Part shown: one piece after another, positions 2,928-18,289 of the stretch
Layout: each line of letters starts with the position of its first letter
How positions within the stretch are numbered: position 1 is the stretch's first letter
Assembly: GCA_964432405.1 (NCBI GenBank)
Contig: CAYSNH010000002.1
Location: 24,695-43,445 of the forward strand
Direction: 5' to 3'
From: an uncultured Candidatus Saccharibacteria bacterium
Lineage (GTDB): Bacteria; Patescibacteriota; Minisyncoccia; UBA6257; UBA11618
DNA: 18,751 bases
Program-made: the position numbers and the translations under genes
The notes under the pieces: model-generated
The model's database searches: none
Told to the model about the DNA's origin: nothing
What the model saw: the letters and a program-made list of their open reading frames with translations, nothing else

Positions 2928-4232
2928 TTAATTATTAGCACAACACCATACTGGATATTTTTCACAAACTGCTCCTTCGCTAGTATTACCATTAATACTA
3001 ACTGATTTTCCAGAAACTCCAGTAGAGGGGTAATTATAAGCGTCAGCTACCCAAGCGTTAATTACGCCCTCTTGCTCAAAAACTCCATTCCAAAAAGTTG
3101 TTTCAAATCCAAAAGTCCAAATTGTGCCAGCACTTAATTCATTTAAGTGACTAGCTCCTTGTTTGTAAAAATAGACCGTAGGGGCTGATATACTACTTCC
3201 ATAATTTGTATAGTTTGAGTAACAACCTTTAATGGTATAGGTATCTGTACCACAAGAATCCGTAGTTCTTTCAGCGGCAGTACATACCCACCAGCCCTTA
3301 GGACAAGAAGCGGCAGCTCCTTCCCATCTAACAGATGGGATGCTTCTAGATATTTTTAACCCTCCCTTAACACACTCTCCACTAGTGTTCTTTACAACAA
3401 CTCCTGGTCGGCCCTGACCCCACAAATGATCACCTGGCAAATAATCCCATTCAGCTTTACCACCATCAGTACCAGCTTTAAGAAACTTTCCTCTAACGGG
3501 CGAGCCTCCTTTTATTTTTAACTGCCCCATAATCTCTACCAAGCCACTCTCATCAATCCTCATTCTATTTGAAGAAACCGTGGAGCCTTCTGGAGTGGTG
3601 TAAAAAGAAAGGTCGCCGGGTGACTGGTCAGAGTCCCAAGTTTCTCGAGCTGTTCCTTGAATATATGATCCAACACGAGGATTAGCCTCACTACCACCAT
3701 CAGTACCAGTGAATATAATCCTACCCAAAGCATTACCGCCATTAATACTGTTATCTATTCTTTTAAAGGCCATCTTTACCGCCGTACTGTTGTCGGCTAT
3801 TTCTAATTTTGAGCTGGGGCTGGTAGTGCCAATGCTAAGTTTTTTCAAAAAAGCTGCGTCACCACTAGCATTGTCGATCTCAAATACATACTGTCCACCA
3901 CCCGTCACAGCATAATCATAGATATAAAAATTGTCATTGCTCTTATGAGATCCTATCCCCCACTTACGATCCCCCGACTCACCTAAAGAGAACTGTCCCC
4001 AAGAAGCTCCGTAGTCCAGTAAAAGCTCTACCGAAGCATCCTTTTCTTTAACGTGCAATCTTGCATCAGGAGATTCTGTACCAATACCCACATTGTCATC
4101 ATCAGCTGCTAATAAACCATTATCATTAGGAGGTGCTGCGGTAGGGCCTTGGAAAGCAAAAATCGTGCGAATGCTAACCACTAATAAAAGGGCCGCCACA
4201 GCAATAACAGCTACGTAGAAGTAGTTTCTCAT
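2928..4232 (-). CDS. Secreted or membrane-anchored surface protein: tail-fibre-like N-terminal region plus an 8-Cys C-terminal module
   Basis: 434 aa. Hydrophobic N-terminus (YFYVAVIAVAALLLVVSI). Two copies of a [VI]GIGTxSPxxxLx[VI] motif (NVGIGTESPDARLHV and KLSIGTTSPSSKLEI), as seen in tail-fibre-like surface proteins. All 8 Cys lie in the C-terminal residues about 272-434 and align with those of the 181-aa paralog. Confidence 0.75.
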   Translation of the reverse strand: MRNYFYVAVIAVAALLLVVSIRTIFAFQGPTAAPPNDNGLLAADDDNVGIGTESPDARLHVKEKDASVELLLDYGASWGQFSLGESGDRKWGIGSHKSNDNFYIYDYAVTGGGQYVFEIDNASGDAAFLKKLSIGTTSPSSKLEIADNSTAVKMAFKRIDNSINGGNALGRIIFTGTDGGSEANPRVGSYIQGTARETWDSDQSPGDLSFYTTPEGSTVSSNRMRIDESGLVEIMGQLKIKGGSPVRGKFLKAGTDGGKAEWDYLPGDHLWGQGRPGVVVKNTSGECVKGGLKISRSIPSVRWEGAAASCPKGWWVCTAAERTTDSCGTDTYTIKGCYSNYTNYGSSISAPTVYFYKQGASHLNELSAGTIWTFGFETTFWNGVFEQEGVINAWVADAYNYPSTGVSGKSVSINGNTSEGAVCEKYPVWCCANN

Positions 4233-4239
4233 TGCTTTG

Positions 4240-4245
4240 ATTATA
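4240..4245 (-). promoter_or_regulatory. -10 box (TATAAT) 7 nt upstream of the 434-aa gene ATG
   Basis: Minus strand reads GGGGTATAAT-CAAAGCA-ATG. No SD-like sequence lies between, and the -35 is poor (AAGATA at 17 nt spacing). Confidence 0.3.
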
Positions 4246-4266
4246 CCCCGTCACAGACTACTTATC

Positions 4267-4294
4267 TTGTGGATAAAAGGGAAAGTGATATGAT
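4267..4294 (+). promoter_or_regulatory. Putative cysS promoter; the -10 lies 7 nt from the ATG
   Basis: TTGTGG (4267-4272), 16 nt spacer, TATGAT (4289-4294), then TTAATAA and ATG at 4302. There is no SD. The -35 overlaps a perfect DnaA-box 9-mer, TGTGGATAA (4268-4276). Confidence 0.3.
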
Positions 4295-4301
4295 TTAATA
4301 A

Positions 4302-5603
4302 ATGCTTCTATACGACTCTCTTTCTGAAAAAAAGAAAAAAGTGGTTAAACCTGCTAAGGGAGATTTAAAACTCTTTGTTTGTGGTCCCACCGTATATGAC
4401 GATGCTCACATTGGTCATGCTCGCACTTATATTGTTTTTGATGCTCTGGTTAAATATCTTCGCTCTCAAAAAACAAAGGTGTTCTATCTTCAGAATATTA
4501 CCGACATTGATGACAAGATTATTAATAGAGCCAAATTAAAGAAACAAGACCCTAAAGAACTTGCTCGTCAATTTGAAAAAGAATACCAGCAAGACATGAA
4601 GGCTTTGGGAGTTAATAGTGTTGATAAATACGCTCGAGCTAGCACTCACCTCGCTCAGATTAAAAAACAAATTAGCACACTCCTTAAAAAAGGATTTGCT
4701 TATGAAACTGATAATGGAGTTTATTTTGAAATTAAAAAGTTTCCTCGTTATGGCCAGCTTTCTAAGCAGAACCTTGATGAGTTAAAGGCTGGGTGGCGTG
4801 TAGAGCCGGATCTGCAAAAAAAAGATCCTATGGATTTTGCTCTATGGAAAAAAACAGATACTGATTGGAATTTTAATAGTCCTTGGGGGAAAGGACGTCC
4901 TGGATGGCACATAGAAGATACTGCTATTAGTGAAAAATATCTCGGCTCTCAATACGATCTTCATGGAGCAGCAGTTGATCTCAAGTTTCCTCATCATGAA
5001 TCAGAGATAGCTCAACAAGAGGCGGCTTCTGGCAAGAAGCCATTTGTGAAGATATGGATTCACGCTGGTTTTCTATTAGTGAATGGTGAAAAAATGTCTA
5101 AGAGCGCGGGTAACTTTATTACCATCAAAGACTTTCTCAAAAAATATCCGGCTAATGTATTACGTATGATTGTTTTGAGCAATCACTATCGCTCCCCCAT
5201 AAACTACACCCACAAGACGGCTGAACAACAAAGAACCTCTCTAGATAGAATATTTAACTTCTTTAGAACGGTCACTTTAAAAAAAGAACCTAAAGGGGTG
5301 GGGGGTCTTATAAAAAAAGCTGAGAAGCAATTTATTGCTGCTCTAGAAAATGATTTTCATACTCCTAAAGCCTTGGCCGTCATCTTCTCTTTTATTAGCA
5401 AAGCCCCTAAAACAGAAGAGGCTAAAAAATGGATAGCTGACAAATTAAAACTTCTTGGATTGGATCTAAAAACTCCTAAGCCAACTAGTAAAATAAATAA
5501 AATGGTTCAAGAAAGAGAACAGATGCGCCAGCAAAGACAGTATAAAGAAGCTGATAAATTAAGAAGGAAAATAGAAGTGCTAGGATTTTTGGTTGAAGAC
5601 TAG
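4302..5603 (+). CDS. cysS: Cysteine--tRNA ligase
   Basis: 433 aa. Class I synthetase HIGH motif in the CysS context (CGPTVYDDAHIGHARTY), KMSKS motif (GEKMSKSAGNF), and WHIEDTAIS / FPHHESEIAQ resembling the CysS zinc and active-site regions. Confidence 0.95.
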   Translation: MLLYDSLSEKKKKVVKPAKGDLKLFVCGPTVYDDAHIGHARTYIVFDALVKYLRSQKTKVFYLQNITDIDDKIINRAKLKKQDPKELARQFEKEYQQDMKALGVNSVDKYARASTHLAQIKKQISTLLKKGFAYETDNGVYFEIKKFPRYGQLSKQNLDELKAGWRVEPDLQKKDPMDFALWKKTDTDWNFNSPWGKGRPGWHIEDTAISEKYLGSQYDLHGAAVDLKFPHHESEIAQQEAASGKKPFVKIWIHAGFLLVNGEKMSKSAGNFITIKDFLKKYPANVLRMIVLSNHYRSPINYTHKTAEQQRTSLDRIFNFFRTVTLKKEPKGVGGLIKKAEKQFIAALENDFHTPKALAVIFSFISKAPKTEEAKKWIADKLKLLGLDLKTPKPTSKINKMVQEREQMRQQRQYKEADKLRRKIEVLGFLVED

Positions 5604-5609
5604 TATAAT
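5604..5609 (+). promoter_or_regulatory. TATAAT hexamer 9 nt upstream of the dnaB ATG
   Basis: Reads gacTAGTATAATgtatgaactATG. The hexamer starts directly after the cysS stop codon. I found no SD and no good -35. It may be a chance match in AT-rich sequence. Confidence 0.2.
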
Positions 5610-5618
5610 GTATGAACT

Positions 5619-8228: not shown

Positions 8229-8257
8229 TGTATAAATAACTACCAGCACTTTGTCAA
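8229..8257 (-). promoter_or_regulatory. Putative sigma70-type promoter for the membrane protein-rplU unit
   Basis: Minus strand reads TTGACA (8252-8257), 17 nt spacer, TATACA (8229-8234), about 28 nt upstream of the ATG at 8200. Confidence 0.45.
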
Positions 8258-8271
8258 AGGAGAAACTCACT

Positions 8272-9270
8272 ATGATTAACAATCCTCTGTTAAAAGGATT
8301 CGAAAAAGTTTGGGAGAGAGCTCATCATGTACATATTAATTTTAACCAATTAAGTATCATGGCTCGAGTCTGGGCTAATCAACAAACACCCCTTCCTGAT
8401 TGGTATCTACCAATCTTCCCGGAAAAAGATGAGGAGTTTACTCAGTTTCTAGGCATCAACATGGCTATCAACTTTGGCTTTGTTAATCCTAAAAACAAAA
8501 AACTCTTTGCTGTTACATACAAAGACCAACTCTGGAAAGGTTCGGCTGCTCTTAGCGCTTGTTTGATGAGAGCGCTAGAAGATGGCCTTCCTATTCTCGA
8601 TGCTGGCTATCTCAGCCAACTTCAAGAAGAGGAGTTGTGTAAGATTTTGAAAGGCAATATGGCTAGGATCCCGCTCTTTAAGGAGCGCCTTCAAGCCTTG
8701 CGAATAATTGGCAACTCTTTGAATGGTAAGTTCTGTGGTCGTTTTGAAAGACTCTTCAGCAATGCTGACTATAGAGCCTTTCCTAAAACTGACTGGGATG
8801 GCGGGATTCTCGATTTTATTCGTAAATTCTTCCCACCTTTCTATGATTCTGGCTTCCACTACCGCAGTCATCACAATCTCAATTTCTTTCAACGAGCCCA
8901 AAACATGATCATCGTCTATCATGGTCGAGCCTCGGCTGACAACAGTCTGAAGCCGATCGAAGACATTGATCTCGTTGGTCCAGTGGCTGACTATCAAATT
9001 CCTAACGCCCTTCATGACATGAAGATATTGGAATACGACAGAGGGCTTGAGAGAAAGATTCTGAGAAGAATTGAACTGGAAAGTGGTGATGAAGAAGAGG
9101 TCGAGATCAGAGCCTTGTCAGCTAAGGCTGTTATTGAGTTACTCAAAAAAATTAATGAGATCAGGTCGGAGAAGGATCGCATCAATATTTGCCAACTCAA
9201 TCATCGATTGCGGCAAAGATCCAAAAGATGTCTGACTCCTCACCATCTGACTCTCTGTACATCTTATTAA
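8272..9270 (+). CDS. Queuosine salvage family protein (DUF2419 / QNG1-like queuosine 5'-phosphate N-glycosylase/hydrolase homolog)
   Basis: Recognised by recalled similarity to human QNG1 (C9orf64). Matches (this protein vs human): LMRALEDGLPILDAGY vs VNRALDEGIPITSASY; FFQRAQ vs FYKRAQ; ADYQIPNALHDMKILEY vs ADYRLPQVLAHLGALKY; EEVEIRA vs QEVEIRG; C-terminal PHHLTLCTSY vs PFHRIRCIYY. I prefer ATG 8272, which has AAGGAG 9 nt upstream, over the track's TTG 8251. Confidence 0.65.
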   Translation: MINNPLLKGFEKVWERAHHVHINFNQLSIMARVWANQQTPLPDWYLPIFPEKDEEFTQFLGINMAINFGFVNPKNKKLFAVTYKDQLWKGSAALSACLMRALEDGLPILDAGYLSQLQEEELCKILKGNMARIPLFKERLQALRIIGNSLNGKFCGRFERLFSNADYRAFPKTDWDGGILDFIRKFFPPFYDSGFHYRSHHNLNFFQRAQNMIIVYHGRASADNSLKPIEDIDLVGPVADYQIPNALHDMKILEYDRGLERKILRRIELESGDEEEVEIRALSAKAVIELLKKINEIRSEKDRINICQLNHRLRQRSKRCLTPHHLTLCTSY

Positions 9271-9376: not shown

Positions 9377-10623
9377 TACATCAACCGAATCTCTTGAACA
9401 ATCCGATCTAATTCTATAACACGAGAACCCTTGATCAAAACTAGGTCTCCTTTTTCTAATAATCCTTGAACTTCTAACTTAGCTTGTTCTGCTGTATCAA
9501 AGCTGAAAATATTGCTTTTGTCAAACCCTGCCTGAGCAGCAGCTTCAGCGATAAATTTGGCTCGTAAGCCAACGGTAACCAAGATATCCAAAGATTCATT
9601 ACAAAGCTGACCAACCGCTTCATGAGCAGCATTGGTAAATTGACCCAGCTCTAACATGTCACCTAACACCCCCACCTTTCTGTTAGCTTTTAGATCTCTT
9701 ACCGTATCTAAAGCTGCGTGCATTGATAAGGGAGCGGCGTTGTAACTGTCATCGATAATATAAGTTCCTTTAATTCCTGGCAGAAGCTTCATTCTTTGAG
9801 CTGGCGGTTGATAGTATTGAATAGCTTCGGCAATCTTCACCAAACTAAGGCCAAAAGCCAAACCTATAGAAGCGGCTGCAGCAACCGCGTAAGCCTGCGC
9901 TTTGCCAAAAGCACCTGTTAGTCGAATCGGCACAAAATCACCCGCATGCTCTAATTTAAAGGCGATTCCGAGAGGCTTATGACCACCGGTATGTAAAGTT
10001 TCACTCTTGTTTTCAAAATTAGTTATTCTAACCTCTGCCCCCTTGCCAAAACCAAAGGTAATTATATGAGCTCGTGTTTTCTCTCTCATTCTCATTACCG
10101 ATTCATCATCGAAATTGAGAACACCAAAACCAGCTGAAGGAAGCGCTTCTATGATGCGAGATTTTTCTCGAGCAACTGCTTCTGGGCCGCTATAAAACTC
10201 AACATGAACTGGGATGGCGCCAACAGTTGTTACCAGCCCCATCTGTGGTTGAGCTATATCTAAAAGATATCTAATATCACCCGGTCGATCAGCAGCATAC
10301 TCTAAGACTAATATCTCTGGATAATCCACCTTAATCATAAGATTTTTAATAGCCTGACAGATGACCTTGGGCCAGAAAAATAAACCCTTAACCTCCTTGT
10401 AATCGCCAAGAATAGTTAGAGGGAGTCCGATCTCATTATTAAAATTACCCCTACTAGACCGCACCTCTCTAATATTACGCAAAATAGTATAGATAGCGTC
10501 TTTGGTAGAGGTTTTACCAACCGTGCCTGTAACGGCTACGATTCCTGGTTGATATTTTTTAATAGTCTTGATGGCTAAGACTTTTAAAATATTCTTTAAT
10601 TTGCTTCTTAAAAAACTTCTCAT
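9376..10623 (-). CDS. murF: UDP-N-acetylmuramoyl-tripeptide--D-alanyl-D-alanine ligase (MurF-type Mur ligase)
   Basis: 415 aa. Mur ligase P-loop VTGTVGKTSTKD and the MurF-typical NFNNEIGLPLTIL motif. Its start overlaps the ftsI stop as ATGA. It lies within the dcw cluster. Confidence 0.8.
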   Translation of the reverse strand: MRSFLRSKLKNILKVLAIKTIKKYQPGIVAVTGTVGKTSTKDAIYTILRNIREVRSSRGNFNNEIGLPLTILGDYKEVKGLFFWPKVICQAIKNLMIKVDYPEILVLEYAADRPGDIRYLLDIAQPQMGLVTTVGAIPVHVEFYSGPEAVAREKSRIIEALPSAGFGVLNFDDESVMRMREKTRAHIITFGFGKGAEVRITNFENKSETLHTGGHKPLGIAFKLEHAGDFVPIRLTGAFGKAQAYAVAAAASIGLAFGLSLVKIAEAIQYYQPPAQRMKLLPGIKGTYIIDDSYNAAPLSMHAALDTVRDLKANRKVGVLGDMLELGQFTNAAHEAVGQLCNESLDILVTVGLRAKFIAEAAAQAGFDKSNIFSFDTAEQAKLEVQGLLEKGDLVLIKGSRVIELDRIVQEIRLM

Positions 10624-13422: not shown

Positions 13423-13854
13423 TTATATGTTTAGATCAGTTAGTTTTTCAGCTATCTCATCCGACTCAGCTTCAGTTCTAGTTTTATACTCTTGCCATTT
13501 TTCCTTGTCCCAAATTTCAACTCTGTTAAATAGACCAGCAATGACTGCTTCTTTATTTAAACCAGCATACTCTCTCAAATAGTCAGGCAAAAGAATTCTT
13601 CCCTGACTATCTAAACTAACTTGCATAGCTCCAGCTAACATCAAACGAACAAAAGCTCGGGAATTAGCCTGAGTTAAAGGCAAAGCTACCAGCTTCTGAG
13701 CTAGCTCTTGCCACTCGGTTTCGGTATAAATGAACAAACAGTGATCTAAGCCTCTGGTAACAACAACACCAGTCCCTAATTGTGGACGAAACTTAGCAGG
13801 AACTGCTACGCGACCTTTTTGATCTATACTGTGTTGATATTCACCAATAAACAT
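13423..13854 (-). CDS. mraZ: Transcriptional regulator MraZ
   Basis: 143 aa. MFIGEYQHSIDQKGRVAVPAKFR and a second SpoVT/AbrB-like repeat, LDSQGRILLPDYLR. It is the first gene of the dcw cluster. Confidence 0.95.
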   Translation of the reverse strand: MFIGEYQHSIDQKGRVAVPAKFRPQLGTGVVVTRGLDHCLFIYTETEWQELAQKLVALPLTQANSRAFVRLMLAGAMQVSLDSQGRILLPDYLREYAGLNKEAVIAGLFNRVEIWDKEKWQEYKTRTEAESDEIAEKLTDLNI

Positions 13855-13930: not shown

Positions 13931-14009
13931 TTAATTTTATACTAAAAAAGCAGGGTTACAAACCCCACTTTGTGGATAACTTATTAGAAAATAAGCTTAT
14001 TTTGAGAAT

Positions 14010-14041: not shown

Positions 14042-14695
14042 TTACAAATTAAGATGATTTAATGGAACGTCGTCTACCTTGCTTTCAGACAAGTCAATCC
14101 CCTGACAATCTGGGCATTGATCTTGAGTCCAAATTTGAAAACTAGCACTCGCCAAAGGGATGATGCTGAAAATGCCATCTCTAGACAAAGGCAGTCCTGA
14201 ATTGAGATTCAAGATTGCAGTTAAGCCAGCTACAACCCCACCCAATTCACGAGTTAGGTGAACTAGCTTTGTATTCTGACTTTCGATGTAGAAGATGTCA
14301 TCCACTATCAAAACCTTATGCCTCTTGATGAAAAGCTGGTGGTGGTGATGGATGAAAAACTCACCGTCCTGATCTTTCTCGGCAAAAAAAACATTGACGG
14401 GCTTGCTTCCAGAAAACCGATCATAGATCTCAGCTAATTGCTGAGCTATAAGATAGGTTTCCACAGAAGTTGCTAAAAAGGTGTTGATAACACACCTTTT
14501 CTCATATGCAGCAACAAGTATGCGACTAAGAGAAAAACAAAAAGCGTTGAGCTGCTGTTGATTCTCATACAAAAAAGAACGGTTAATTGCTAGATTGCTA
14601 TGATAACCATCCTCCAAATCAGTATGTGAGCGACGAACAATCACCCGCAAATCCTCTAGTATGTGTATAGGCAGCTTGATTTTTTGCTGATCCAT
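14042..14695 (-). CDS. Phosphoribosyltransferase-like (type I PRTase / orotate-PRTase-like fold) protein with a degenerate PRPP loop
   Basis: 217 aa. The hydrophobic-strand-plus-acidic-pair signature KVLIVDDI sits where PRPP-binding motifs normally do. It is followed by FYIESQNT rather than the usual xTTGxT. The N-terminal SHTDLEDGYHSNLAI resembles the GHFxLSSGxHSxxY segment of PyrE-like proteins. It also has an HHHH run and a C-terminal CPDC. A strong SD (AAGGAGGA) lies 5 nt upstream of the ATG. Confidence 0.5.
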   Translation of the reverse strand: MDQQKIKLPIHILEDLRVIVRRSHTDLEDGYHSNLAINRSFLYENQQQLNAFCFSLSRILVAAYEKRCVINTFLATSVETYLIAQQLAEIYDRFSGSKPVNVFFAEKDQDGEFFIHHHHQLFIKRHKVLIVDDIFYIESQNTKLVHLTRELGGVVAGLTAILNLNSGLPLSRDGIFSIIPLASASFQIWTQDQCPDCQGIDLSESKVDDVPLNHLNL

Positions 14696-14746
14696 TTTAT
14701 TCCTCCTTGTTAAAGTACTTAGATAAAGAATATCCTTATTGTTCCT

Positions 14747-14775
14747 ATTATAATATTTAAAGATGAATTAGTCAA
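14747..14775 (-). promoter_or_regulatory. Near-consensus sigma70-type promoter for the PRTase-like gene
   Basis: Minus strand reads TTGACT (14770-14775), 17 nt spacer, TATAAT (14747-14752). Confidence 0.55.
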
Positions 14776-14779
14776 GTTC

Positions 14780-14807
14780 TTGCTAATAAAAGATTTTTTT
14801 GTATAAT
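14780..14807 (+). promoter_or_regulatory. Near-consensus sigma70-type promoter for thyX, back-to-back with the previous promoter
   Basis: TTGCTA (14780-14785), 16 nt spacer, TATAAT (14802-14807). Only 4 nt separate the two divergent -35 boxes. This implies a leader of about 165-210 nt before thyX. Confidence 0.5.
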
Positions 14808-15024
14808 GGGGGTTAGCAATTTAACATTTTCTAAAAAAAAGGAAGGTAAACATCTAGCCAAAAGAGAAAGCGAGAGAATAATGTGGTTTGTTAATCCAAA
14901 CGGCCTCTGAAAGGAAGGCTTTACTTGAAGAGCTTTATACTAGTGCCGATCTTACTAATTCCCAAATCAATGACTTGGAGTGGATGAGCAGTCGATTCCA
15001 CAAAGTCGGAAAGGTAAATTTGCC

Positions 15025-15744
15025 ATGCAATTTACGAGTGATATTAAAGTCAACTTGATTCAGAAAATGGGTGGCGATCACATGGTCGTTGCAGCAGCCA
15101 AAGTCAGCACAGATGGAGAAGCTGCCGAGAAGATGGCTTATGAATCTGCGGAAGGAAAGGCGGGTTTAATCAATTACTTGATGAATCATCGTCACGGTAC
15201 GCCCTTTGAACATTCGGCTTTGACGTTTTTTGTGCACGCTCCTATCCTTGTATGGCGAGAGTGGCATCGTCATCGTGTGGGATTCAGCTATAACGAGGAA
15301 TCGGGCCGCTACAAAAAGCTAGAACCACTGTTCTATCTGCCTGACCGTGAACGTCTCATGATGAAGATTGAGGATTGGAAACCGGGTCGACCTAAATTCA
15401 CACGTTGTGAAAGTGACTTGGTTTTTGAGCAATTGTGTAACAACTTGAAGCAAGCCTATGAGCTATCGTACGCAATGTACGAGGCTAACTTAGCTTTAAA
15501 AATTGATCCCGGACTCGCACGAGATTGTCTCCCAGTTGGTATCTACTCGGGCTGTTGGGTCACCTGCAATCCTCGATCGCTAATGGCCTTCCTTTCTCTT
15601 CGTACGCATGAGCCAGACGCTACTCAAATTTCTTATCCGCTATGGGAAATTGAGGTAGCTGCTCGTATTTGTGAGCAGATTTTAGAATCGGGTTGGCCTA
15701 TCACTTACAAAGCATTCGTCAACAATGGAAGAGTTGGTCCGTAG
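15025..15744 (+). CDS. thyX: Flavin-dependent thymidylate synthase ThyX
   Basis: ThyX signature RHRxxSxxxxSxRY is present as HRHRVGFSYNEESGRY. Also HGTPFEH and NPRSLMAFLSLR. I prefer ATG 15025 (MQFTSDIKVNLIQ..., with GGAAAGG 10 nt upstream). The track's GTG 14980 would add 15 aa. Confidence 0.9.
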   Translation: MQFTSDIKVNLIQKMGGDHMVVAAAKVSTDGEAAEKMAYESAEGKAGLINYLMNHRHGTPFEHSALTFFVHAPILVWREWHRHRVGFSYNEESGRYKKLEPLFYLPDRERLMMKIEDWKPGRPKFTRCESDLVFEQLCNNLKQAYELSYAMYEANLALKIDPGLARDCLPVGIYSGCWVTCNPRSLMAFLSLRTHEPDATQISYPLWEIEVAARICEQILESGWPITYKAFVNNGRVGP

Positions 15745-15751
15745 AAACGCT

Positions 15752-15813
15752 CTGGAGCACCTACGCCGGGGAGATTGCCATCTGGTGTAATTTACGATCC
15801 GGCTAGGCTCCAG
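15752..15813 (+). other. GC-rich imperfect stem-loop in the thyX / MazG-like intercistronic spacer
   Basis: CTGGAGC (15752-15758) pairs with GCTCCAG (15807-15813), CTA with TAG (15761-63 / 15804-06), and GCCGG with CCGGC (15765-69 / 15799-803). That gives about 15 bp with two small bulges and a roughly 29 nt apical region. No U-tract follows. Confidence 0.4.
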
Positions 15814-15880
15814 TTCGTGCTTACCGTAAAACTCATGAATAAAAAATCTTTTTCACCCCTTTTGTTAGAGGAATAAAATT

Positions 15881-16198
15881 ATGACCCTACGAGGAAGCGA
15901 AGCATTTCATCATGAACTCGGTGAGATGGGAAAGCTGCACGATAAGAAGCAAAATGACTATGGGAGTCCCTATGACCCTTTTTCCAATGTGAGGGCGTCC
16001 GAAGACTTTGGAATATCAGCGTGGCTGGGATGTCTCATTCGAATGAATGACAAGATGTCTAGACTGAAGACATTTGCAAGAAAAGGATCTCTCAGCAATG
16101 AAAGTGTGGAAGATTCTTTACGAGACTTGGCAGTTTACGCGATCATTGCTCTCTGCCTATATCAGGAAGAAAGTGACAGAGATGATAAAGGAAAGTAG
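15881..16198 (+). CDS. All-alpha NTP pyrophosphohydrolase-like protein (MazG-like / DUF1599-like)
   Basis: 105 aa. ELGEMGKL resembles the MazG EExGE helix, and VEDSLRDLAVYAIIAL resembles the MazG ExxaDvlxYxxxla helix. The central KQNDYG...RMNDKMSRLK resembles what I recall of DUF1599. The SD AGAGGA lies 8 nt upstream of the ATG. The family assignment is from memory only. Confidence 0.5.
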   Translation: MTLRGSEAFHHELGEMGKLHDKKQNDYGSPYDPFSNVRASEDFGISAWLGCLIRMNDKMSRLKTFARKGSLSNESVEDSLRDLAVYAIIALCLYQEESDRDDKGK

Positions 16199-16328
16199 GA
16201 GAAGAATATGGCGCGTTAATCCAGACAGCGTAACAACTGATCCTGAGCAAGAAGTATCGACTGAATCGATGTTTACCGATAGTCTAGTTGATGTTTTTCT
16301 ATTACTAGAAAATCACTCTAGATAGTTG

Positions 16329-16400
16329 TGAGCATTGTGGGAATCGAACCCACAACCTCTACCTCATCAAGGTAGCGCTCTACCATTGAGCTAAACACTC
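16329..16400 (-). tRNA. tRNA-Ile (anticodon GAU), atypical G at position 37
   Basis: Hand-folded 72 nt cloverleaf: acceptor GAGTGTT/AATGCTC (two adjacent G-U pairs), D-arm GCTC-AATGGTA-GAGC, anticodon arm CTACC-TTGATGA-GGTAG, variable loop AGGTT, T-arm GTGGG-TTCGATT-CCCAC, discriminator A. No CCA is encoded. Confidence 0.8.
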
Positions 16401-16401
16401 T

Positions 16402-16429
16402 GAAACCCCTCAAAAGGGGTTTCTTTTTA
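16402..16429. terminator. Hairpin between rplL and tRNA-Ile; a T-run follows it only on the + strand
   Basis: Perfect 9 bp stem GAAACCCCT (16402-16410) with AGGGGTTTC (16415-16423), loop CAAA, then TTTTTATTT on the + strand. On the minus strand it lies 3 nt after the rplL stop and 1 nt before the tRNA 5' end, with no U-tract. Confidence 0.55.
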
Positions 16430-16939
16430 TTTCAGTTCAACTGCAGCACCAGCTTCCTCTAACTTGCCTTTCATCTCTTCAGCCTCTTCTTTCTTTACAG
16501 CTTCTTTAATGGTGCTAGGAGCGCCATCAACTAATGCTTTAGCTTCTTGTAAGCCTAAACCAGAAATCTCCTTAACGGCTTTGATGACCTGAATCTTCTG
16601 AGCACCGGCGTCCTTAAGGACCACATCGTACTCGCTTTTCTCTTCAGCGCCACCTTCACCACCTGCACCAGCAACAGCGACTGGCATAGCAGCGGAAACA
16701 TCAAAACGGCTTTCGATAGCTTTAACTAACTCAGATAGCTCCAAAGCATTCATCTTCTCAACTTTATCAAGAAGATCTTTATACTTCTTCTCTAATTCAG
16801 CTGCCTCTTCAGTTTTCTCTTCTTTTACTTCTTCAGCTGGTTTTTCTTCAGCTTTCTCCTCTTTCTTTTCTTCTACTTTTTCCTCAGCAGCTGGCTGAGC
16901 TTCCTCTTTAGTTTCTTCTACTTTTTTATCTTCTGCCAT
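16427..16939 (-). CDS. rplL: 50S ribosomal protein L7/L12 with an N-terminal E/K-rich extension of about 50 aa
   Basis: 170 aa. Residues about 51-170 align with canonical L7/L12: [31 protein letters not shown], an A/G hinge, then [39 protein letters not shown]...EAGAAVELK. The ATG lies 4 nt after the rplJ stop. Confidence 0.9.
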
Positions 16940-18227: not shown

Positions 18228-18289
18228 ATATTTATTATATATAAAAACCACAATTAAAATAATGTGGCTTTTATATTTTTGAATTAAAT

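Follow-up and report, generated by a model that had tools for sequence, protein, structure and literature searches.

Do genes that stand side by side behind back-to-back promoters form a functional unit? This question is raised by a locus in an 18,751-nucleotide stretch of DNA from an uncultured Candidatus Saccharibacteria bacterium (assembly GCA_964432405.1, contig CAYSNH010000002.1, positions 24,695 to 43,445 of the forward strand; hereafter the window, numbered from its first nucleotide). The DNA derives from a Patescibacteria (Candidate Phyla Radiation) lake-metagenome scaffold, and its thyX protein is present on ENA ERZ23498901 scaffold_105 (102 kb). Three genes of interest lie here between the dcw cluster and rplJL. 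They encode a protein resembling phosphoribosyltransferases (PRTases), the flavin adenine dinucleotide (FAD)-dependent thymidylate synthase ThyX, and a small protein of the DUF1599/NMAD1 family. The gene order is mraZ (- strand), the PRTase-like gene (-), thyX (+), the DUF1599-like gene (+), tRNA-Ile(GAT) (-), rplL and rplJ (-). The original prediction, made from this DNA alone, had placed the unit in the same way, and its three gene identities hold. It had further read the three genes as one co-regulated cassette. Our analysis points to a different history, in which phage-type DNA carrying thyX and DUF1599 was inserted into a resident gene beside an unrelated PRTase-like gene, and we put the probability of this reading at roughly three in four.

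Evidence that thyX and DUF1599 interrupt a resident gene

The related contigs that cover this locus comprise an M lineage (L003–L005), a T, or sister, lineage (L006–L009, L129 and L146) and a third haplotype, L147. The M lineage has an orthologue of the PRTase-like gene (67% amino acid identity), the same divergent promoter pair, an intact gene for a protein of 175 amino acids, and tRNA-Ile followed by rplL. Both thyX and DUF1599 are absent at this locus in all three M-lineage contigs, and the 175-aa gene fills their place. The window retains both ends of that gene. On the left are its promoter (TTGCTA-16-TATAAT, + strand, 14780–14807), the counterpart of which in L003 (TTGGAA-16-TATAAT) precedes the intact gene, and its 5' untranslated region, ribosome-binding site (RBS) and first codons (14808–14904, + strand). 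Flanking sequence similar to L003 spans 14681–14824 and by alignment continues to approximately 14904, and what is left of the 5' coding sequence is now a nine-codon open reading frame (ORF) starting at ATG 14882. On the right, the last 30 or so codons are found at 16237–16325 (+ strand), where they can be recognised against L003 by blastn (80–82% identity; 82% over 16238–16417), by tblastn (E 5e-8) and in alignment. The 130 nucleotides in front of the tRNA had been thought to look like decayed coding sequence, and this is indeed what they are, namely the 3' end of a gene of which an intact copy survives in a relative. Since both ends of the 175-aa gene surround the intervening segment, an arrangement for which no other origin is possible, we conclude that the segment was inserted into this gene.

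An imperfect 39-nt direct repeat (29/39 identical) sits exactly at the two junctions. Its left copy (14866–14904, + strand) falls within the 5' remnant, and its right copy (16191–16229, + strand) overlaps the DUF1599 stop codon. The best of 300 shuffles reached 24/39, and the window holds no other match that reaches 27/39. The remnants and the repeat therefore bound the foreign segment as 14905–16190 (+ strand; 1,286 nt, GC 44.9%), and no homology to L003 is seen between the junctions. The original prediction had reported that neither an integrase nor a flanking direct repeat was present and that any mobile origin would be old. The absence of an integrase and the age of the insertion are supported, as no integrase or recombinase was found among the window ORFs or in Pfam scans; the repeat, however, exists.

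The same note had pointed to the 3' end of tRNA-Ile(GAT), which lies at 16328–16400 on the - strand (ARAGORN; Rfam 72.9 bits) and occupies the same position in L003 and L006, as a classic integration target. This can be discounted because the tRNA adjoins the uninterrupted gene in L003, and because an 89-nt remnant of the resident gene parts the insert from the tRNA in the window; the repeat, moreover, contains no tRNA sequence.

It might be argued that the direction of change should be reversed, so that the common ancestor of the clade had the thyX–DUF1599 pair and the 175-aa gene later took its place in the L003 lineage. Only three lineages are available and there is no outgroup, so the polarity lacks formal proof. 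This alternative nevertheless has to contend with an insert that is compositionally foreign and phage-affiliated, and that is flanked in the window by both ends of the very gene supposed to have replaced it, and we regard it as exceedingly improbable.

The arrangement is consistent with the following scenario. In an ancestor of the window lineage, 1.29 kb of phage-type DNA with thyX and DUF1599 would have entered the 175-aa gene around its RBS and start codon, creating or using the 39-nt direct repeat, and some 400 nt of the gene body would have been lost after the insertion. The insert would now be transcribed as a thyX–DUF1599 unit from the promoter of the resident gene at 14780–14807. The repeat itself may have arisen as a target duplication, or it may represent the att core that an integrative element left behind as it decayed.

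The latter origin can be extended to the proposal that the 1.3-kb segment is the stump left by an integrative element or prophage that was once larger. Such an element would have integrated site-specifically at the start of the 175-aa gene through an att core of about 39 nt, and would then have lost its integrase and other genes through internal deletion. In favour of this, direct repeats lie exactly at both junctions, both cargo genes are phage-type, and deletions are active at this locus, having removed approximately 400 nt of the resident gene here and 210 nt in L147. However, neither an integrase, an excisionase nor any further phage gene remains in the window, viral contigs offer no attP-like match, the repeat copies are only 74% identical, and the element would have to have shrunk to exactly two intact genes. 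A stump is thus possible, though we consider it doubtful.

In the M lineage a gene for a Laminin_G_3 protein of 1,194–1,236 residues lies between the PRTase-like gene and mraZ (L003 10668–14360; L004 5437–9147), and trmD is separated from rplJ by genes for a sigma-70 factor and a 236-aa protein. Neither the 175-aa resident protein nor the 236-aa neighbour has a family match in Pfam. The dcw–rplJL interval is a hot spot for variable genes in this Patescibacteria clade.

The inserted genes are foreign in composition and phage-type in affinity

The compositional distinctness of thyX and DUF1599 is real but modest. Their GC contents are 46.1% and 44.0%, compared with 39.0 ± 3.0% in 18 backbone genes (z 2.4 and 1.7, respectively). 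Among 21 genes they have the highest GC, the highest GC at third codon positions and the two least typical codon usages, and tetranucleotide deviation peaks at 15001–16200 (z 2.95). The original prediction had recognised this arm as distinct, with hand counts of 50–52% GC; the counted lines are real, but the mean they gave was overstated, and one third of the 60-nt lines have a GC content of 50% or more. The composition of the PRTase-like gene is backbone-like (z 0.56), as had been claimed.

Homologues of ThyX number in the thousands. The nearest of them are 70–77% identical and were found in phage gene contexts in every place examined, on contigs of 10–220 kb and with primase, DNA polymerase A, SSB, DUF3310, D5-type primase-helicase and HNH genes as neighbours. 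The nearest homologues of the DUF1599 protein (70–78% identity) are likewise on phage-like contigs, and the PHROG matches agree, which bears out the foreign, phage-like origin that had been suggested for the thyX arm. Among the genomes of 185,579 species the DUF1599 subfamily occurs at only 10 loci, scattered across unrelated phyla, and one of these is a sister metagenome-assembled genome (MAG). Most donor-type phage loci have a GC content of 54–63%, a range consistent with an insert that has partly ameliorated.

The two genes were also sought as a pair, in a search that covered 80+8 viral DUF1599 loci, 15 viral ThyX loci, 10 genomic loci and 8 context look-ups. Outside the clade, thyX and DUF1599 were found together in none of 25 ThyX loci and about 105 DUF1599 loci (some 130 loci altogether). 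When the insert was compared by tblastx with all the phage loci fetched, only the two coding sequences matched, and the leader, the spacer and a 56-aa ORF gave no match. The parsimonious account is a single insertion of an already adjacent pair from a donor outside the sampled phages.

Several of these observations weigh against the insertion reading or against parts of it. No sampled phage pairs thyX with DUF1599, so the origin of the pair in a single event is a matter of parsimony and not of observation, and the 120-nt leader and 136-nt spacer match nothing that was sampled. The degenerate 39-nt repeat, used as an attP query against viral contigs, returned 0 matches; target-site duplications are seldom as long as 39 nt, and no integrase was found. 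Transcription of the insert from the resident promoter is predicted from the sequence. Lastly, dS between thyX of the window and of the sister is 0.026, which is too little divergence to prove selection by itself.

Adjacency and divergent promoters do not make a module

We next consider whether the PRTase-like gene, thyX and DUF1599 could nevertheless constitute one self-contained, co-regulated module for thymidylate synthesis or nucleotide modification. The genes are adjacent, and the two strong-looking promoters are present as described in the original prediction, with -35 boxes 4 nt apart: TTGACT-17-TATAAT on the - strand (14775–14747), which serves the PRTase-like gene, and the + strand promoter at 14780–14807. 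The former is the sole match with no more than one mismatch in the 18.7-kb window, where 0.15 would be expected, and it is kept in L003 as TTGACT-17-TATTAT. The latter is unremarkable by itself (3.06 matches expected at up to two mismatches) and is credited because of its position and its conservation in the relative L003. All three genes also have Shine-Dalgarno (SD) sites, which are absent from most backbone genes, as had been noted. That of the PRTase-like gene, AAGGAGGAA, is perfect (-11.4 kcal/mol), those of thyX and DUF1599 are of moderate strength (-5.4 and -6.0 kcal/mol), and most backbone genes have values near 0. In addition, the sister MAG UBA11618 (GCA_003539915.1) retains all three genes.

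These features have to be set against the distribution of the genes. The PRTase-like gene and the divergent promoter pair are older than the insert and are found in L003–L005 in its absence, and the composition of the PRTase-like gene matches that of the backbone. Co-occurrence is not found at any of the approximately 130 outside loci, and DUF1599 has been inactivated in sister variants. In the sister MAG the trio is part of a tract of 98–100% identity that was shared recently, and for this reason its presence there does not constitute independent evidence for a cassette. The cassette reading fails because the three genes do not co-occur, and we consider a single module to be highly improbable.

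The shared tract was delimited by comparing the window with the two lineages along its length. To the left of approximately 13943 the window is about 85% identical to the T lineage, with dS values of 0.5–1.3, and in the same region T (L006) is 98–99% identical to M (L003). To the right of 13943 the window and T are 98–100% identical (dS of 0.07 or less) for at least 8.7 kb, and M stands at approximately 80–86%. Sliding identity and per-gene dS place the breakpoint at 13943–13975, in the intergenic region between mraZ (13423–13854, - strand) and the PRTase-like gene. The shared tract includes rplJL, trmD, rpsP and smc and continues to about window-equivalent position 22690 in L001. This points to a recent exchange of the thyX-bearing tract by homologous recombination between CPR (Candidate Phyla Radiation) populations that are about 15% diverged. 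Through this exchange, the tract from approximately 13943 rightwards, insert included, would have come to be shared with a lineage that differs by about 15% in its dcw region.

ThyX is predicted to make thymidylate

The thyX gene (15025–15744, + strand) encodes 239 amino acids from an ATG at 15025, in agreement with the lengths of its homologues, and not from the GTG at 14980 that had been proposed as its start. The protein matches the equivalog model TIGR02170 over its full length (145.7 bits against a cutoff of 87.9) as well as PF02511 (130.6 bits against 24.8, E 7.7e-38). The ThyX motif RHR...SGRY is intact, and the segments HRHRVGFSYNEESGRY, HGTPFEH, ARDCLP and NPRSL align with Thermotoga maritima ThyX and with PolB. 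The substrate- and FAD-binding Arg and His residues likewise align with those of T. maritima ThyX. Because the match is at equivalog level and the motifs are intact, the protein is predicted to convert dUMP to dTMP with methylenetetrahydrofolate (CH2-THF), FAD and NAD(P)H. It may in this way supply a metabolically reduced cell with its own thymidylate, and dTMP synthesis would then be the selected benefit of the insertion. The protein is 99.2–99.6% identical to its sister variants (T lineage 99.2%, L147 99.6%).

The known proteins that it most resembles are phage ThyX proteins (PHROG 85) of actinophages and aquatic phages. Like these it is full length with intact motifs, and it stands as an isolated foreign gene in a chromosome; it is 70–77% identical to ThyX on phage-like contigs and approximately 50% identical to that of Gordonia and Streptomyces phages. 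It differs in that the recipient is a Patescibacteria genome, in that it appears to have captured a resident promoter for its expression, and in that it lies beside DUF1599, a pairing seen in no sampled phage. A phage ThyX homologue on a 163-kb viral contig (L128) is split into two parts, at 8963–9241 and 10001–10456, which are approximately 760 nt apart and correspond to residues 1–93 and 88–239; such a split is suggestive of an intron, an intein or the insertion of a homing endonuclease.

The best relative of solved structure is PolB (PDB 4P5A; E 9.6e-52), a UMP/dUMP C5-methylase of polyoxin biosynthesis. Tyr126 of PolB favours UMP, and dUMP-specific Streptomyces ThyX has Phe at this position (PMC5003785). 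The window ThyX also has Phe here and differs from PolB in this respect, and the position of Tyr124 aligns with Pro, although the alignment of this loop is uncertain. A role as a PolB-like UMP methylase was therefore considered and rejected: the protein has the loops, but Phe occupies the position of the Tyr that favours UMP in PolB (Tyr126), and there is no evidence for UMP methylation.

DUF1599 appears to be a dispensable passenger

The DUF1599/NMAD1-family gene (15881–16198, + strand, 105 aa) is intact in the window. Its product falls narrowly under the gathering cutoff of PF07659 (23.2 bits against 25) and matches phrog_1485 at 1.1e-16. All 38 members of its subfamily match PF07659, and all 23 family-invariant residues are present in the window protein. 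An AlphaFold2 (AF2) model gives a four-helix bundle with a confidence (pLDDT) of 91, for which Foldseek finds viral DUF1599/NMAD1 models in BFVD (template modelling (TM) score 0.7–0.85, E 6.5e-6). Members of the PF07659/PHROG 1485 family are typically set in phage modules for replication and nucleotide metabolism, and their phage neighbours are varied, including RecB-like nucleases, AAA_24, SSB, dCMP deaminase and dUTPase. The window gene differs in its location, a bacterial chromosome, and in that its counterparts in sister variants are undergoing decay. The literature contains passing mentions only of DUF1599/NMAD1, and we know of no biochemical function for the family.

Decay is seen in both other thyX-bearing haplotypes. 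In the T lineage (L006–L009, L129 and L146; at least six independent assemblies) the invariant Trp48 codon has changed from TGG to TGA, and the protein differs from that of the window at 9 of 105 residues, with a dN/dS of 0.8. In L147 (Ga0315338_1028638) a deletion of 210 nt, corresponding to window positions 15829–16038, removes the RBS and the first 52 codons. Because DUF1599 has suffered the nonsense change at Trp48, a dN/dS of 0.8 and the 210-nt deletion while thyX has remained 99.2–99.6% identical, the gene would seem to be a dispensable accessory passenger that ThyX does not need. Downstream of its deletion, L147 shows a mixture of window-like and T-like states.

A more specific role had been proposed for the small protein, as an all-alpha MazG-like NTP pyrophosphohydrolase that feeds dUMP to ThyX in a two-gene dTMP module. 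The four-helix bundle would suit such an enzyme, and conserved D26, D32, D57, E74, D78 and D82, together with K23, R38, R54, K58 and R61, fit nucleotide-metal binding. RS21-C6/DCTPP1, iMazG and YpjD are among the Foldseek matches to the model, and some phage members of the family adjoin dCMP deaminase or dUTPase. The fold matches are, however, non-significant (E about 1–5, TM 0.35–0.43), and the conserved acidic residues are not in the canonical ExxE...ExxD spacing. None of the 38 family members matches a MazG-type Pfam model at E <=1, hhalign against Escherichia coli MazG gives a probability of 0.4%, and a profile search of the PDB found nothing significant. Linkage to ThyX is not seen in approximately 105 DUF1599 loci, and DUF1599 has been lost in sister variants that retain thyX. 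The proposed MazG similarity thus finds no support at the level of sequence or profile, and a dUMP-supplying role is unlikely.

An anti-phage function, which had also been raised, was rejected: PADLOC gave no match for the PRTase-like protein, ThyX, the DUF1599 protein or the 175-aa protein.

The spacer between thyX and DUF1599 contains an imperfect long hairpin (15747–15818, + strand) of weak significance (minimum free energy -35.2 kcal/mol, z -1.87; 8 of 200 shuffles equally good), and the fold of the 120-nt leader has a z of 0.0. Rfam at E <=1 revealed the tRNA alone, and a riboswitch or other RNA element in the leader or spacer is not supported.

The neighbouring gene encodes a degenerate PRTase-like protein

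The PRTase-like gene (14042–14695, - strand; promoter 14747–14775) is resident at the locus, having an orthologue in the lineage that lacks thyX, and encodes a protein of 217 amino acids of the pyrE_Therm/HP1257-like family. There is no match to PF00156 at E <=1, and the score against TIGR01367 is 39.6 bits, below the cutoff of 150.25. Its fold is nevertheless that of a type I PRTase in an AF2 model (pLDDT 84), for which the best PDB match in Foldseek is 4paw (E 3.5e-12, TM 0.67–0.76), with many orotate PRTases (OPRTases) and adenine PRTases also matched.

The phosphoribosyl pyrophosphate (PRPP) loop is altered, as the original prediction had stated, and reads VDDIFYIESQNT as opposed to VEDxLTTGGS in the family. 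Over the wider region the protein has VLIVDDIFYIESQNT where the family has VLxVEDxLTTGGS; the acidic pair alone is kept, and TTGGS has become YIESQ. The pyrophosphate (PPi) loop has LATSVET in place of VGPAxGG, the flexible-loop Arg is replaced by His, and NRGG by NLNSG. The protein keeps an AEK motif, the acidic pair and a C-terminal W..CPxC (CxxC) motif. It can be seen that it shares fold, length and C-terminal motif with the TIGR01367-type 'Thermus family' OPRTases (Helicobacter pylori HP1257, PDB 4PAW, and stand-alone PRTases of CPR bacteria) but is without TTGGS, GPAxGG, the loop Arg and the Arg of NR(G)G. Judged by these residues, it is most likely not a PRTase, its catalytic activity having probably been lost.

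The ORF is intact at 77% nucleotide identity, with a dN/dS of 0.40 as against 0.03–0.14 for backbone genes, and the replacement loops (DDIFYIES[QH]NT and ATSV[ED]T) are conserved between the 67%-identical orthologues, indicating that the protein is fast-evolving but maintained. The most likely interpretation is that it is a non-catalytic PRTase fold that binds a ligand or has otherwise been repurposed, with no functional tie to thyX.

Close relatives are rare, only two being present among 5.8 billion clustered proteins, and the nearest homologue is labelled 'Patescibacteria group bacterium'. An exhaustive HMMER search recovered 248 distant relatives, which are stand-alone TIGR01367/HP1257-type PRTases of about 210 residues that carry canonical VEDxLTTGGS and GPAxGG and a C-terminal W..ECPLC motif. 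One canonical relative is surrounded by housekeeping genes, and its contig, which in addition has a type IV secretion system (T4SS) pilin gene, looks CPR-like by gene content.

If the window protein is a PRTase fold maintained by selection without canonical catalysis, the non-catalytic or regulatory PRTase-fold proteins PurR, PyrR and GfcR would be analogues; the canonical relatives include matches to the purR_Bsub, PyrR and GfcR models. The window protein has no DNA-binding domain, and it differs from PurR and PyrR, which retain the PRPP motif, in having lost it. It is conceivable that it is a new kind of pseudo-PRTase, acting as a sensor of a nucleotide or PRPP-like ligand on the adjacent divergent promoter, or an enzyme with a new substrate, although we would give this only a slim chance. 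If the sensor reading were true, the captured phage thyX would be under nucleotide-responsive control. The gene has the sole near-perfect sigma-70 promoter of the window, and its SD is perfect in a genome that is mostly without SD sites.

Two side observations concern the same gene. Within the tract that is otherwise 99–100% identical to the sister, 12 of the 100 nt at 14342–14441 (residues ~85–118) differ, and six of the seven amino acid differences from the sister cluster in the flexible-loop region (FFIHHHHQ in the window, FFIRHHDQ in the sister); this cluster could reflect local diversifying selection or a small conversion patch. Antisense to the coding sequence, at 14310–14408 (+ strand), there is a sub-threshold Rfam match to the wcaG RNA (23.6 bits against a gathering score of 42, E 0.16), which is probably due to chance.

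Other features of the window

Between tRNA-Ile and rplL, at 16402–16423, lies a G+C-rich hairpin with a T-run on the + strand. It is likely to form the end of the + strand transcript, and it also lies 3' of rplL on the - strand. The rplL gene (16427–16939) encodes an L7/L12 protein with an N-terminal extension of approximately 50 residues, rich in Glu, Lys and Ala, ahead of the dimerisation domain; the Pfam L12_N domain begins at residue 54, and the length of the protein differs among the lineages (170, 173 and 174 aa).

Several backbone genes that lack an SD have a TATAAT-like box 6–12 nt before the ATG, namely orf434 (box region 4233–4250), cysS (4285–4301), dnaB (5600–5618) and trmD (18228–18245). 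This suggests that leaderless mRNAs, or mRNAs with very short leaders, may be used in this genome.

Further to the left, an ORF of 181 codons (2377–2922, - strand) has a weak match, below cutoff, to the Tox-PLDMTX papain-like toxin domain (E 0.003). It adjoins an ORF of 434 codons (2928–4232, - strand) that belongs to no family, and the neighbour at that position in a relative has a Dockerin_1 domain. The Q_salvage gene (PF10343, queuosine salvage; 8251–9270, + strand) is 73% identical at the amino acid level between lineages, compared with 88–97% for its neighbours.

Conclusions

What the locus records is a CPR genome that took up a phage-type thyX beside a pseudo-PRTase to which it is unrelated; this is gene capture of an ordinary kind, and no new system of three genes is involved. 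It would not surprise a specialist, because the transfer of thyX between phages and cells and the existence of degenerate PRTase folds are both already known. The locus does provide a warning that adjacency and divergent promoters need not mean a functional module. Its value is as a clean example, open to full reconstruction, in which a metabolically reduced CPR bacterium has acquired a gene for nucleotide synthesis from the pool of phage genes: the sequence itself shows both junctions, the flanking repeat, the disrupted resident gene, the capture of a promoter, the decay of the passenger gene and the spread through homologous recombination. As such, it is relevant to the means by which Patescibacteria make up for gaps in their nucleotide metabolism.

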